Source: an uncultured Verrucomicrobiae bacterium
GTDB taxonomy: Bacteria; Chlamydiota; Chlamydiia; Chlamydiales; Rhabdochlamydiaceae
NCBI GenBank assembly: GCA_963718565.1
Contig: OY970364.1
Location: 352,001-416,000, forward strand
DNA: 64,000 nucleotides
Direction: 5' to 3'
Under the pieces are notes generated by a model. The model was given only the letters and a program-made list of their open reading frames with translations. It made no database searches and was not told the origin of the DNA. Below, in pieces: positions 59,515 through 64,000 of this stretch (positions are counted from its first letter, which is position 1; each line of letters starts with the position of its first letter). The translations under genes and the position numbers were made by a program.

Positions 59515-61059
59515 ATGCAAACAGAAGTGCTCATCATCGGATGCGGAATTGCGGGGTGCATTATTGCCCTTGAGCTTGCCGAAAAAGGGATTCAGGTGAT
59601 TTTGCTTGGTTCTAAGGGTGGTACTGAGTCCAATTCCCATTCTGCTCAAGGGGGGATTATCTTTCGCGGAAGCGGCGATTCTCAAGAGCTATTAAAGGAG
59701 GATATTCTTCAAGCAGGTTGTGGGTTGTGCAATCCAGAAGCTGTCGAGCTGCTCGTTCAGTGGGGCCCCAAACTTGTTCAAGAACTGCTGATTGATAAAT
59801 ACAAAGTTCCCTTTGACCGTGATGAAAACAGGGCTTTGAGTATGACTGCGGAAGGAGCGCATTCGATTCCTCGCATTATTTATCATCGTGATCAGACAGG
59901 AAAGGCGATCATGTCGGTTTTACTTGACGCTGTTAAAAATTCTCCCCATGTTCAATTCAAGCCCAATCATACGGCTGTCGATTTAATCACCCTTTCTCAT
60001 CATTCTAAAAAACGGACAGATATCTATGCTCTGTCGACTTGTGTCGGGGCCTATGTCATGGACAATTCTCGCTGTGCCATCGACATCTGCTTTGCTCAAG
60101 AGACGATCTTGGCGACAGGGGGGCTTGGCGAAATTTATCTTCATACGACAAATCCTAAAGAAGCTCGTGGAGATGGGGTTGCCATGGCCTATCGTGCTGG
60201 TGCCCGCATCATGAATATGGAGTATGTCCAGTTTCATCCTACCGCCTTGTATCTTCCTTTCGATCGCCGTTTTTTACTGAGCGAAGCGCTGCGCGGCGAA
60301 GGAGCTGAACTCTTGACGAACGGCTTTCAGTCCTTTATGCACCGATACCATGAAAAAGGTTCATTGGCTCCTCGAGACGTGACGGCTCGAGCGATCTATC
60401 AGGAGATGGTTCGCTGCGAGTCTCAGCACTTATGGTTGGATATGACAGGTACAGAGGCCCCTTATCTCAAACAGCGCTTTTCCAGCATTTACAACTATTG
60501 TCTAGAAAAAGGTTTCGATATGACGAAGGAACCGTTACCCGTCGTTCCAGCGGCTCATTATTCTTGTGGCGGAATTGCGGTGGATTCCAAAAGCCAGACG
60601 ACGATTCGACGACTGCGCGCCGTTGGCGAGGTCGCATGCACGGGATTGCATGGGGCAAATCGCCTGGCTTCGACATCCCTTTTAGAGGCACTAGTGTGGG
60701 GACAACTCTGTGTCGATGATCTCATTGCTGGAATGAGAGGACGCGATGATTATTTGCCGCCGATCGACCCTTGGGTCATGAGCGATGGAATCGCAGATAG
60801 TGCATTGATCCAACAAGATTGGATGACGATCAAGCAGACGATGTGGAACTATGTGGGTCTCGTGCGGGACAAGGCACGCCTTGACCGTGCCCATAGGATG
60901 CTGACCGAACTTAAGTGGGAGATCGAATCGTTTTACGACCGCTGCTGCCTGACGCCCGAGCTGCTTGGATTGCGCAATGGCGTCCAAACCGCTCTGCTTG
61001 TCACGCAAGGGGCGCTTCGCAATCGCGATTCCATCGGATGCCACTATCGCCTGAATTAG
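59515..61059 (+). CDS. nadB: L-aspartate oxidase
   Basis: GCGIAG, AQGGI, EGAHS, QFHPT, SEALRGEG, LAPRD, GLHGANRLASTSLLE. Confidence 0.95.
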   Translation: MQTEVLIIGCGIAGCIIALELAEKGIQVILLGSKGGTESNSHSAQGGIIFRGSGDSQELLKEDILQAGCGLCNPEAVELLVQWGPKLVQELLIDKYKVPFDRDENRALSMTAEGAHSIPRIIYHRDQTGKAIMSVLLDAVKNSPHVQFKPNHTAVDLITLSHHSKKRTDIYALSTCVGAYVMDNSRCAIDICFAQETILATGGLGEIYLHTTNPKEARGDGVAMAYRAGARIMNMEYVQFHPTALYLPFDRRFLLSEALRGEGAELLTNGFQSFMHRYHEKGSLAPRDVTARAIYQEMVRCESQHLWLDMTGTEAPYLKQRFSSIYNYCLEKGFDMTKEPLPVVPAAHYSCGGIAVDSKSQTTIRRLRAVGEVACTGLHGANRLASTSLLEALVWGQLCVDDLIAGMRGRDDYLPPIDPWVMSDGIADSALIQQDWMTIKQTMWNYVGLVRDKARLDRAHRMLTELKWEIESFYDRCCLTPELLGLRNGVQTALLVTQGALRNRDSIGCHYRLN

Positions 61060-61244
61060 AGAGGGAATTGCAAAACTCCTCGCCGCATAAAATCGCGCTT
61101 TTGACACCTGTCGCCTTGGCGGCGGCTCTCCTACTTATCCAAGTATGCTTTCGCCGCCGCTAACCGAACCCGCTGTGCGGGTTCTGGCAACAGGTGCCAA
61201 AATCATCGATTTTCTGCTGGCGAGGAGTTTTGCAATTCCCTCTA
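61060..61244. repeat. MITE-like element, family B, full length (about 185 bp)
   Basis: 25-bp IR AGAGGGAATTGCAAAACTCCTCGCC with nested internal hairpins. Confidence 0.88.
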
Positions 61245-61311
61245 GAGTTTTTTGCTTGCTGGTAATTTCCTATTCCGGTTAAGATGCTCATCTTAAATTT
61301 GAAGTTTTGGT

Positions 61312-61385
61312 GGGGTATTAGCTCAGTTGGTTAGAGCGCCACGTTGACATCGTGGAGGTCAGCTGTTCGAGTCAGCTATATCCCA
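61312..61385 (+). tRNA. tRNA-Val(GAC)
   Basis: Cloverleaf: GGGGTAT/ATATCCC acceptor stem, CCACG-TTGACAT-CGTGG anticodon arm, AGCTG-TTCGAGT-CAGCT T arm; CCA not encoded. Confidence 0.96.
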
Positions 61386-61393
61386 AAACGTTC

Positions 61394-62974
61394 ATGAAAA
61401 TTTCTTTTGAAAACCCCACACTTCCTCTTAATCACACTGCCGCAGCGCTTATGGCAACTGCGGTGGTTGAGCTTTTTCCTAAAACGCTTCTTGTCGATGG
61501 GCGAGGAACTTCTAAATATTTTTACTATGATTTTATTTTTCCCTTTGAGTTCACATCAGAGTTTTTGCCTCTCATCGAAGAGCGGATGCGTGTGATGATC
61601 AGGGAGAAAAGAACTGTCCGTCTTACGGAAATGATGCCGTCCAATGCTGCTATGCTCATGAAGCACCTCCATCAAGAAATTGTTGCGGATAGGCTGATGC
61701 AAGTCCAGCAAGCGACCGTCCACATCGTTCACATCAGTGGCTTTTCTGTTTTTTCCCCTGAGCCAACTCTAGAAGAGCTCTCTATTCCTTTTTTTAAAAT
61801 TCTCGAAGGGTTTTCCTGTGAAGCCTCTCAAAGAAAAGCGTTCCGAATTGTCGGTGCGGCTTCCTTGGATAAGGAACGGTTGAAAGAGATCGCTAAGCTG
61901 CCGCCTGTTTCCTTGCAATGCCATTGGAAATTGAGTTCAGAAATGGCCCTGTGCGAACCGATGGAAGAAACGGGGATGTGGTATTGGCGGCCAAATGGAG
62001 ACAAGCTCCGGCAAATCCTGATCAAGTTCTGGCAAGAAGAGCTGATGAAGCAAAAATTTGAGTTAATTTCCTCGCCAACCCCGTTTATCGAAGATGGAGG
62101 GGAGAAAAGCCTTCGTCACAGTCATCGCGAATATTTTTTTCGATTTGGCATCCTTAAGATTGCTGAAATGGCATGGATTTTGAATGAAGATTTTCGTGAT
62201 CCAAGCCTTGGCCTCTTCTCGCCAAAAGCCTTTTTTGGCGACCGTGCCCATCTCTTTTGTTCTACGGAGAAACTTTTAGAAGAATGTATTTCGTCCTTGC
62301 GTTTCATCCTTAAAATCCCTAAAATTCTGGGTTTTGAGTTCGAAATTGTCTTATCAGTTTCGAGCGTTAGTGCTCAAAAGGTGAAGGCAAAAGGAGTGGC
62401 TATTTTCCAGCAAGCGCTGGAAGAAGCCGGCCTTGACTATACTCTTGAAAAAGAGTATCGAGCAGGCACTGTAGCGAGCATTAATATTTGTTTTGCTGAT
62501 TCCTTGGGAAGAAAATGGGCGGGGCCTTTTTTGAGGTTGTCAGATGCCGCAATGCCCCTGGGAAAAGGCACAATGCTGACTGTTTCAGCATTTGGATCCT
62601 TAGAGAGGATCTGTGCATTGTTATTGGAGAACAAATGTGGATGGATTCCACTTTGGTTAGCACCGCAACAAGTACGGATCTTAGTTGCAACGCGTAAAGT
62701 AGACCGTTACGCAAAAGAAGTTCACGAGGCTTTGAGCGCTCAAGGCATTCGAGCAACACTGGAGAGCTGCGCAGAAAAGTTAAAAGCGCGCCTCTACCGT
62801 GCCATGCTTGAAAAAGTGCCTTATGTCCTTTTGCTCGGCGAGCGAGAGGAAAAAGCAGGGACGCTCACGGTGCGTGCTTATGGAGAGAATGAAGAGCAGG
62901 TTTTGTCCTTGGACGAATTCTGCGTGAGACTGAAAAGGGAAATTGAGAGTGGAATCTCTGAATTTAAGAATTAA
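61394..62974 (+). CDS. Degenerate threonyl-tRNA synthetase-like protein (526 aa)
   Basis: FYYDF, GSLER, PLWLAPQQV, KVPYVLLLGERE anticodon domain; catalytic motifs eroded; upstream of infC. Confidence 0.8.
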   Translation: MKISFENPTLPLNHTAAALMATAVVELFPKTLLVDGRGTSKYFYYDFIFPFEFTSEFLPLIEERMRVMIREKRTVRLTEMMPSNAAMLMKHLHQEIVADRLMQVQQATVHIVHISGFSVFSPEPTLEELSIPFFKILEGFSCEASQRKAFRIVGAASLDKERLKEIAKLPPVSLQCHWKLSSEMALCEPMEETGMWYWRPNGDKLRQILIKFWQEELMKQKFELISSPTPFIEDGGEKSLRHSHREYFFRFGILKIAEMAWILNEDFRDPSLGLFSPKAFFGDRAHLFCSTEKLLEECISSLRFILKIPKILGFEFEIVLSVSSVSAQKVKAKGVAIFQQALEEAGLDYTLEKEYRAGTVASINICFADSLGRKWAGPFLRLSDAAMPLGKGTMLTVSAFGSLERICALLLENKCGWIPLWLAPQQVRILVATRKVDRYAKEVHEALSAQGIRATLESCAEKLKARLYRAMLEKVPYVLLLGEREEKAGTLTVRAYGENEEQVLSLDEFCVRLKREIESGISEFKN

Positions 62975-63491
62975 TCGAGAAATCCGAGCTCCGAAAGTTC
63001 GCGTCATCGATAAAGATGGCGGCCAGGTCGGAGTGTTGACTTTAGCAGAAGCATTGGCCAAAGCAGAAGCAGCTGGTCTTGACCTGGTTGAGATTGCGCC
63101 ATCCGCGGATCCTCCTGTGTGCAAGATTATTGATTTCGGCAAATACCGTTATCAGTTAACAAAAAAAGAAAAAGAACAGAAGAAAACACAGCATCAAGTC
63201 AAAGTCAAAGAGATCAAAATCAAGCCGAATACGGATGAACATGATCTAGAGACGAAGATAAAGCATGCGAGAGAATTTATTGCCAAGGGAAACAAAGTCA
63301 GGTTGACTTGTGTTTTTCGCGGAAGGGAAATGCTCCATCCAGAATTTGGACAACGCCTCGTTCAACGCATATGCGATCACCTGTCTGATGTTGCTTCCCC
63401 AGAGGCGCCGCCAAAAATGTTCGGTCGCAATTTGTCGATTGTGTTAGCGCCTGGAGCAAAGAAAAAAACAGCAAATAGTGAAAGGATTTAA
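62943..63491 (+). CDS. infC: Translation initiation factor IF-3 (non-AUG start, TTG 62943 or GTG 62949)
   Basis: INREIRA, LDLVEI, PPVCKIIDFGKY, FRGRE. Confidence 0.96.
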   Translation: MRVESLNLRINREIRAPKVRVIDKDGGQVGVLTLAEALAKAEAAGLDLVEIAPSADPPVCKIIDFGKYRYQLTKKEKEQKKTQHQVKVKEIKIKPNTDEHDLETKIKHAREFIAKGNKVRLTCVFRGREMLHPEFGQRLVQRICDHLSDVASPEAPPKMFGRNLSIVLAPGAKKKTANSERI

Positions 63492-63524
63492 GAAGTAGCT
63501 ATTGAAATTTACGGAGAAACTGTC

Positions 63525-63722
63525 GTGCCAAAAATGAAATCAAATAAAGCAGTGGCTGCGAGATTCAAAGTAACTGGGTCTGGCAAATTAGTCCGTCGTC
63601 ATCCCGGCCGCCGCCATATTTTGACCAAAAAAGCTGCGAAGCGCAAACGCCGTCTCAGAAAAGATGCTTTGGTCGATCAAGGACAAGTTAAAATGTATTC
63701 TCGTATGATGTTAGTAGGATAA
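63525..63722 (+). CDS. rpmI: 50S ribosomal protein L35
   Basis: MPKMKSNKAVAARFKVTGSGK...HILTKK. Confidence 0.96.
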   Translation: MPKMKSNKAVAARFKVTGSGKLVRRHPGRRHILTKKAAKRKRRLRKDALVDQGQVKMYSRMMLVG

Positions 63723-63785
63723 TTAAAATTGAATGAAAAACGGAGCGCGGTATAGTATCGCCTCAGTAAAATTTGGAGAATTACA

Positions 63786-64000
63786 ATGGTAAGAGTCACC
63801 AACGCTGTGGCTGCCAATCGCAAACGCAAACGCCTTCTTAAACGAGCAAAAGGATTTGTCGGTGATCGAAAAAATCACCTGCGTTTGACATCAGATGCTG
63901 TGATGTCTGCTTTGGCATTTAATTATCGCCACCGCAAACAAAAGAAAAGAGATTTCAAACGCCTTTGGATCGTCCGCATTGGAGTCGGTGCAAAGATCAA
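63786..64000 (+). CDS. rplT: 50S ribosomal protein L20 (partial)
   Basis: MVRVTNAVAANRKRKRLLKRAKGF...KKRDFKRLWIVRI. Confidence 0.95.
   Translation, partial: MVRVTNAVAANRKRKRLLKRAKGFVGDRKNHLRLTSDAVMSALAFNYRHRKQKKRDFKRLWIVRIGVGAKI

Follow-up and report, generated by a model that had tools for sequence, protein, structure and literature searches.

A threonyl-tRNA synthetase-like protein that has apparently lost catalysis and is retained between tRNA-Val(GAC) and infC in chlamydiae

The DNA examined here, referred to as the window, is a stretch of 64,000 nucleotides (positions 352001-416000) of the single 2.28 Mb contig, OY970364.1, that forms the genome of an uncultured Rhabdochlamydiaceae bacterium (G000). 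Between a gene for tRNA-Val(GAC) and infC, the gene for initiation factor IF3, the window carries an open reading frame (ORF) that was read from the letters alone as an intact but apparently catalytically dead paralogue of threonyl-tRNA synthetase (ThrRS). Taken as a whole, the data are very probably best explained by a dead ThrRS-derived protein that is selectively kept and that belongs to an old chlamydial family residing in the slot between tRNA-Val(GAC) and infC. The features of the locus, in window coordinates, are the following.

61311..61386, forward strand: tRNA-Val(GAC), found by ARAGORN and by Rfam (RF00005, 61312-61385, 66.8 bits); CCA is not encoded
61387..61393, forward strand: spacer of 7 nucleotides (nt) between tRNA and ATG, 8 nt if the Rfam tRNA end is used; no Shine-Dalgarno sequence
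61394..62974, forward strand: ThrRS-derived pseudo-synthetase ORF (P0001), 526 amino acids (aa) plus stop codon, uninterrupted frame
61394..61903, forward strand: N2 (editing-domain-like) part, residues 1-170, from alignments and the secondary structure of the model
62069..62638, forward strand: shrunken class II core, residues 226-415, from alignments; about 190 aa compared to about 290 in ThrRS
62639..62941, forward strand: class IIa anticodon-binding domain, residues 416-516, from PF03129; aligned to residues 535-634 of 1qf6
62943..62974, forward strand: overlap of the paralogue end and the infC start region, with a GGAG-like motif and candidate starts TTG 62943, GTG 62949, CTG 62958 and ATT 62970
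62943..63491, forward strand: infC (IF3), from a candidate start; several start codons are possible
63525..63722, forward strand: rpmI (L35), downstream of infC
63786..64000, forward strand: rplT (L20), 5' part of an ORF that leaves the window

The open frame of 526 codons claimed in the sequence-only reading is intact from 61394 to its stop at 62974 on the forward strand. The same reading placed the ORF 8 nt after tRNA-Val and in overlap with infC, and this also holds: the gap is 7 or 8 nt, depending on whether the tRNA end is taken from ARAGORN or Rfam, and infC shares 32 nt with the 3' end of the paralogue when counted from TTG 62943.

The kinship of the encoded protein to ThrRS is far beyond chance, both in sequence and in structure comparison. 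A sequence search of the PDB aligned it with E. coli ThrRS (1qf6) in three stretches at E 2.4e-27. This alignment begins only at E. coli residue 71, which means that the paralogue has no TGS domain. Pfam recognized the anticodon-binding domain only (PF03129, residues 426-514, E 6.6e-16), the tRNA_SAD model PF07973 had no match on the paralogue, and the NCBIfam thrS model TIGR00418 scored 184.7 bits, below its cut-off of 383.65. The AlphaFold model, for which 71 family members were used, reached a predicted local distance difference test score (pLDDT) of 90.5 and a predicted template modelling score (pTM) of 0.89. With this model, the best PDB matches found by Foldseek were full-length ThrRS structures (1qf6, E 2.7e-42; 1nyq, E 2.2e-38). 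Judged from the predicted structure, the paralogue keeps the ThrRS fold, consisting of the N2 domain, a class II core that is shorter by some 100 residues, and the anticodon-binding domain.

To describe the active sites, E. coli numbering was mapped on the canonical ThrRS encoded elsewhere in the same genome, and 25 paralogues were aligned to that enzyme. The residue numbers and their roles in zinc binding, threonine/ATP binding and editing are those we take to apply to the E. coli enzyme. The HxxxH editing motif reads HTAAA in the window paralogue and NQTAA in most orthologues, the equivalent of H73 being His in the former and Gln in the latter. The equivalents of the editing positions H77, K156, D180, C182 and H186 are all replaced, across the aligned paralogues by non-conserved hydrophobic or small residues. 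In the core, deletion or replacement of the KPMNCPGH loop (now GEKSLRHSH) has removed the zinc-binding Cys. Motif 2 (HRxE...GLxRVR) has become ILNED...GLFSPK, with replacement of its Arg and of R375. Further substitutions are QDDAH to GDRAH, FYGPK to GTVAS, WQCGTxQ to WAGPFLR and MIHRA to MLTVS. The core residues lost thus comprise C334, R363, E365, R375, Q381 and D383 as well as Y462, K465, Q479, T482, Q484 and H511, and only the equivalent of H385 (in GDRAHLFC) and motif 3 (GSLER, with its Arg) are kept. Of the zinc ligands C334, H385 and H511, only the second has an equivalent, the third being replaced by Thr.

The alignments to 1qf6 and to the canonical enzyme reproduced all motif readings made earlier from the sequence, and the domain search, the 1qf6 alignment and the predicted structure agree with the earlier claim of an editing-like and an anticodon-binding domain without a TGS region. 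The losses are shared by the family. The catalytic set is missing in 17 of the 17 family proteins that were aligned (among P0001-P0098; 484-613 aa), and the N2 domain is present in every family member. The next-best matches (P0099-P0104) were canonical with the catalytic set complete in 5 of 5 cases, and no intermediates were found. A working ThrRS, for which the presumed zinc, threonine and ATP residues are lost, and an editing enzyme of the N2 type, in which the presumed editing residues are replaced, are both ruled out with good confidence.

Threonyl-tRNA synthesis is, by its sequence motifs, covered by a separate canonical thrS. A profile search of the genome gave exactly one match above the thrS cut-off (1772881-1774548, 679.9 bits). 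It lies in an ORF of 642 aa (locus L001, 1772674-1774602), 1.36 Mb from the paralogue, in which TGS, HTSAH, KPMNCPG, HRHE, QDDAH, FYGPK, WQCGTIQ and MIHRALFGSIER are intact. The canonical enzyme is present in every genome carrying the paralogue. The catalytic part of this enzyme scored 423 bits with human cytoplasmic ThrRS and about 380 bits with the E. coli catalytic fragment in a PDB search.

In a protein search with the paralogue, about 100 relatives with identities down to 29% preceded the first canonical ThrRS. Those with a named source come from Rhabdochlamydiaceae, Chlamydiales or Chlamydiota metagenome-assembled genomes (MAGs), and they are annotated as 'threonyl-tRNA synthetase', 'hypothetical protein' or, for P0082, 'Threonine--tRNA ligase 2'. 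At least 50 of the 101 genomes sampled over the phylum have a second, non-canonical ThrRS-like ORF of 304-613 aa, a lower bound since 41 further matches lay outside those listed. The position of the gene is conserved over many chlamydial families: infC follows the paralogue in 43 of 43 distinct loci, and tRNA-Val(GAC) precedes it in 42, the single exception ending at a contig edge. The paralogue is absent from Chlamydiaceae-like genomes of 1.0-1.2 Mb, of which five out of five have the canonical enzyme. In these five genomes weak matches were confined to the anticodon-binding-domain part of the thrS model and fell in other ORFs of about 430-660 aa. On the 5' side of tRNA-Val, the window has an ORF (59515-61059) that resembles FAD-dependent L-aspartate oxidase, with the NadB-type N-terminus GCGIAG. 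A similar ORF precedes tRNA-Val at locus L151, in the reduced genome that lost the paralogue.

Ratios of non-synonymous to synonymous substitution rates (dN/dS), calculated by the Nei-Gojobori method (NG86), were 0.238, 0.176, 0.154, 0.180 and 0.191 for the paralogue in five independent pairs. The pairs are unsaturated (dS 0.12-1.06), and one of them has no anticodon-binding domain. Bootstrap intervals lay within 0.11-0.37, none of 200 replicates reached 1, and the three domains taken separately gave 0.11-0.28. In the same genome pairs dN/dS was 0.037-0.055 for the canonical ThrRS and 0.060-0.096 for infC. The paralogue protein is therefore under purifying selection that is about four times weaker than that on the canonical enzyme. 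An alignment of 71 family proteins has 10 invariant columns and about 80 with at least 90% conservation. Identities per domain among members that have all domains are even (0.30-0.35), and the idea that N2 is the best conserved part was rejected; it is only that N2 alone is recognized in the shortest forms.

A survey of 18 other genomes of the genus found 14 intact full-length orthologues (52-80% identity), two shorter ones and two fragmented copies. The MAGs with the fragmented copies are 64% and 72% complete and have the essential infC in pieces as well, which makes sequencing error the likelier cause. The gene also seemed broken in G006, G018 and G001. This was rejected: in each case the single stop is the natural stop codon of the gene, which comes slightly earlier. 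A neutral pseudogene is ruled out by the intact frame in the window and in 14 of the 18 genus genomes, together with dN/dS values of 0.15-0.24. The expectations of the sequence-only reading that a canonical thrS is encoded elsewhere and that the paralogue is not in neutral decay thus both agree with the data. As far as sequence can tell, the protein is a non-catalytic aminoacyl-tRNA synthetase paralogue: it descends from a synthetase, has lost the active site, exists alongside an active enzyme and is under purifying selection.

The way in which the paralogue is embedded between its neighbours bears on its expression. Its ATG lies 0-13 nt past the discriminator base of tRNA-Val in 15 of 15 loci of the genus, directly abutting the tRNA in L011, and within 25 nt of the tRNA in 7 of 10 other loci examined. 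This leaves no space for a Shine-Dalgarno sequence. Promoter, terminator and Rfam scans of 60900-64000 returned the tRNA only, with promoter-like matches at chance level. The simplest reading is a tRNA-mRNA co-transcript from which processing of the tRNA 3' end leaves a leaderless or near-leaderless paralogue mRNA. Since the two are probably co-transcribed, tRNA-Val 3' processing would set the 5' end of the paralogue mRNA, and the protein would probably be translated from this near-leaderless message. A full-length RNase Z homologue is encoded in the genome; its score of 292.2 bits is just under the cut-off of 292.95.

On the 3' side, the stop codon of the paralogue (62972-62974) lies 14 nt beyond CTG 62958. 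This CTG, which follows a GGAG-like motif by 8 nt, is the sole infC start candidate kept in all 15 genus loci. GTG 62949 occurs in 10 of the 15, and starts further upstream are blocked by in-frame stops in most loci; no canonical infC start codon is conserved in these 15 loci. In other families the infC start is likely a TTG two codons before a conserved 'IN'. The predicted stop/start geometry fits coupling by termination and reinitiation, combined with a non-canonical infC start. The latter can be likened to the AUU start by which IF3 of E. coli controls its own synthesis.

The origin of the dead copy was approached by synteny and by phylogeny. Enough sequence on the downstream side was available for 67 non-chlamydial ThrRS loci, of which nine have an intact thrS directly before infC, namely two of two from Planctomycetota, two from Actinomycetota and five from Bacillota. 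Both Actinomycetota loci have the complete order tRNA-Val(GAC)-thrS-infC with an intact ThrRS. Adjacency of thrS and infC was seen at none of three chlamydial canonical thrS loci. Because a working thrS occupies the same slot in other phyla, it can be argued that the paralogue descends from the ancestral thrS. A ThrRS tree of 59 rows was calculated with IQ-TREE by a quick search under LG+C20 with posterior mean site frequencies (PMSF). Its outgroup consisted of 24 sequences out of the 80 that matched the canonical enzyme best in a tblastn search, a biased sample. The paralogues form one long-branched group (support of 100 in the Shimodaira-Hasegawa-like approximate likelihood ratio test, SH-aLRT; stem 1.43), the stem of which has its weakly supported (82) attachment beside Planctomycetota. 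The canonical enzymes of chlamydiae make up a single clade (100), whose sister group is Desulfobacterales (100) and not Planctomycetota. Long-branch artefacts are likely in this tree.

The Desulfobacterales grouping and the score with human ThrRS are hints of a non-vertical history of the canonical chlamydial enzyme. Synteny suggests that a xenologue may have displaced the ancestral thrS, which the tree cannot confirm. In view of the above, we lean towards the paralogue being the positional descendant of the ancestral thrS in a tRNA-Val-thrS-infC-rpmI-rplT arrangement, with the enzymatic role having passed to a second copy that may be horizontally acquired.

Two observations on other ThrRS genes were made in the same searches. 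In L107, L124, L142 and other loci from Collinsella, Oscillospiraceae and Methanomethylophilaceae, the match to the canonical ThrRS begins at about query residue 68-71, in ORFs of 584-606 aa. This suggests that these gut Bacillota and Coriobacteriaceae loci and one Methanomethylophilaceae archaeon bin encode TGS-less forms of ThrRS. Compared to the paralogue these ORFs scored 170-186 bits and the chlamydial canonical enzymes 105-126 bits. A Bacillota MAG locus, L090, has two tandem full-length ThrRS genes of 650 aa each, which gave 677 and 457 bits with the chlamydial canonical enzyme.

What the retained protein may do can be proposed from the surfaces it keeps. The sequence-only reading had suggested retention for the binding of tRNA or mRNA or for regulation. 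In our proposal it would act as an RNA-binding module without catalysis: an acceptor-type helix would be gripped by N2 together with the core, and members that kept the anticodon-binding domain would use it to bind an anticodon-type stem-loop. The ligand could be a tRNA(Thr)-like RNA, or the protein could be a regulator linked to translation. Ribosomes terminating atop the infC start region would couple the paralogue and infC. Non-catalytic RNA binding through the retained tRNA-handling surfaces, with the cistron also serving infC expression, is our tentative proposal for the function, to which we give somewhat less than even chances.

A more elaborate version of this proposal, which is quite unlikely, combines origin and function. 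The ancestral chlamydial thrS, displaced by a second and possibly acquired thrS, would have been exapted both as a binder of tRNA(Thr)-like RNA and as a leaderless 'sensor cistron' in an autoregulatory loop of IF3. Cleavage of the RNase Z type at the 3' end of tRNA-Val would give an mRNA starting 0-13 nt before the AUG, and termination of paralogue translation on the non-canonical (CUG) infC start would set IF3 synthesis. From work in E. coli, IF3 is known to disfavour initiation on leaderless mRNAs.

Several findings weigh against a retained RNA-binding descendant of the ancestral thrS. Neither the tRNA nor a paralogue ORF stands before infC in the four Chlamydiaceae-like infC loci examined, and in the reduced genome L151 tRNA-Val is followed directly by infC. 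The paralogue is thus dispensable, given its loss from four of four Chlamydiaceae-like genomes and one further reduced genome. Several lineages have no anticodon-binding domain, which weakens a role at the anticodon arm. In L022 and L023 the domain was removed by an in-frame internal deletion that spared about 20 C-terminal residues, those encoded over the infC start. Binding of an anticodon arm is therefore not the function of the whole family. The roughly fourfold relaxation of selection relative to the canonical enzyme also counts against the main reading. In net charge and isoelectric point the paralogue resembles ThrRS and is not markedly basic; these values do not discriminate. As to origin, the approximately unbiased (AU) test retained a joint clade of the paralogues and the chlamydial canonical enzymes (log-likelihood difference 2.32, p 0.472), so that a duplication within the phylum may also account for the pair. 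The loss of active-site residues was itself judged by the presumed E. coli residue roles, transferred by alignment.

Three other explanations can be considered. The main alternative, which is unlikely, is that the protein is a regulatory or stabilizing subunit that pairs with the canonical ThrRS as a heterodimer, using the class II interface. Such an arrangement is exemplified by SLIMP with mitochondrial SerRS2 and by the trypanosome prozymes. The paralogue retains motif-1-like elements and the region preceding them (G.W.W.P.G, then FELISSP), and a canonical partner is at hand in every genome that has it. According to PMC5201418, regulation of an active partner by its dead paralogue is a known pattern, which is in line with such a subunit. 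However, the canonical ThrRS manages alone in the Chlamydiaceae-like genomes, and constraint persists in the anticodon-binding domain of those members that have one, although a mere interface partner could do without it. A complex prediction with residues 235-642 of the canonical ThrRS and residues 170-526 of the paralogue gave no answer (score 0.00, without controls) and is evidence neither way.

It is improbable that the ORF is a spacer whose protein has no function of its own, either translated only to unmask the infC start or holding infC signals in its 3' end, and which is a slowly shrinking relic. This would explain why the stop codon overlaps the infC start region, where only a non-canonical CTG is conserved, and why in-frame deletions took the anticodon-binding domain and spared the C-terminal tail. 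The variation in length across families (304-613 aa) and the clean loss in reduced genomes would also be expected. However, a need for coupling alone would penalize stop codons but leave the choice of residues free, which does not fit a dN/dS of 0.15-0.24 over the full length and low values in each domain. The invariant and nearly invariant columns among the 71 proteins and the confidently predicted ThrRS-like fold are also hard to reconcile with a mere spacer.

Hardly credible is an enzyme that remains active, either as a zinc-independent ThrRS or aminoacyl-ligase of altered specificity, or as a free-standing N2 deacylase that edits in trans. The intact fold in the model and the Foldseek comparison, the retained motif 3 Arg and H385 equivalent, and the occurrence of N2 in every member would suit an enzyme. 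Yet all members lack the Arg and Glu of motif 2, the zinc-binding Cys and His and every threonine/ATP contact, and the roughly 100 residues deleted from the core include the zinc-Cys loop. In the editing site HxxxH, D.C...H and the Lys are changed to Ala, Gln or hydrophobic residues, and no new conserved polar set has taken their place.

The retained non-catalytic paralogue would be a datable case in which the gene of an essential enzyme was functionally displaced and then exapted instead of lost. With a start that abuts the tRNA and an end that overlaps a non-canonical infC start, the locus offers a direct way to test how chlamydial IF3 is regulated. There is also a practical consequence. Counts of aminoacyl-tRNA synthetases in chlamydial genomes are inflated because annotation pipelines call the dead ORFs 'threonyl-tRNA synthetase' or 'Threonine--tRNA ligase 2'.

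Compared to bacterial ThrRS (1qf6, 1nyq, TIGR00418), the paralogue has the same fold and the same domain order of N2, class II core and class IIa anticodon-binding domain. It also sits in the same slot, after tRNA-Val(GAC) and before infC-rpmI-rplT, as the intact thrS of some phyla, and it keeps motif 3. In contrast, it has no TGS domain, its core is shorter by about 100 residues and its score is below the family cut-off. It is missing two of three zinc ligands, motif 2 and the residues for substrate binding and editing, and its non-synonymous sites change about four times as fast. Two kinds of free-standing editing protein, AlaX and the archaeal ThrRS-ed, also belong to this superfamily. The paralogue likewise holds an N2/tRNA_SAD-type domain, which in ThrRS handles the tRNA 3' end, but here the domain lacks conserved editing residues and is joined to a dead core. 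Duplicated active ThrRS genes are found as thrS and thrZ in B. subtilis, as T1 and T2 in cyanobacteria and as the self-resistance copies BorO and ObaO. A chlamydial genome with the paralogue likewise has two ThrRS-type genes, but whereas both copies are competent in those systems, here one is dead in all members examined.

The closest parallels are other synthetase paralogues without catalysis. These include HisZ, a HisRS-like regulator of ATP-phosphoribosyltransferase, SLIMP, a SerRS-like insect mitochondrial protein, the accessory subunit of DNA polymerase gamma and the HisRS-like domain of GCN2. For HisZ, SLIMP and the GCN2 domain, their study in each case revealed a regulatory link between translation and metabolism. 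Non-catalytic synthetase paralogues are thus known as a kind. A full-text literature search, judged on listings and abstracts, found no description of one derived from ThrRS, so such a protein is apparently undescribed in the literature covered. The chlamydial paralogue shares with the known cases the class II descent, the retained fold, the loss of catalytic residues, the active enzyme alongside and the selection. It differs in that it derives from ThrRS and not from HisRS, SerRS or GlyRS, and in that it is bacterial and confined to chlamydiae. To our knowledge HisZ, SLIMP, the polymerase gamma subunit and the GCN2 domain are all encoded away from the operon of the enzyme, whereas the chlamydial paralogue has stayed in the ancestral operon slot.

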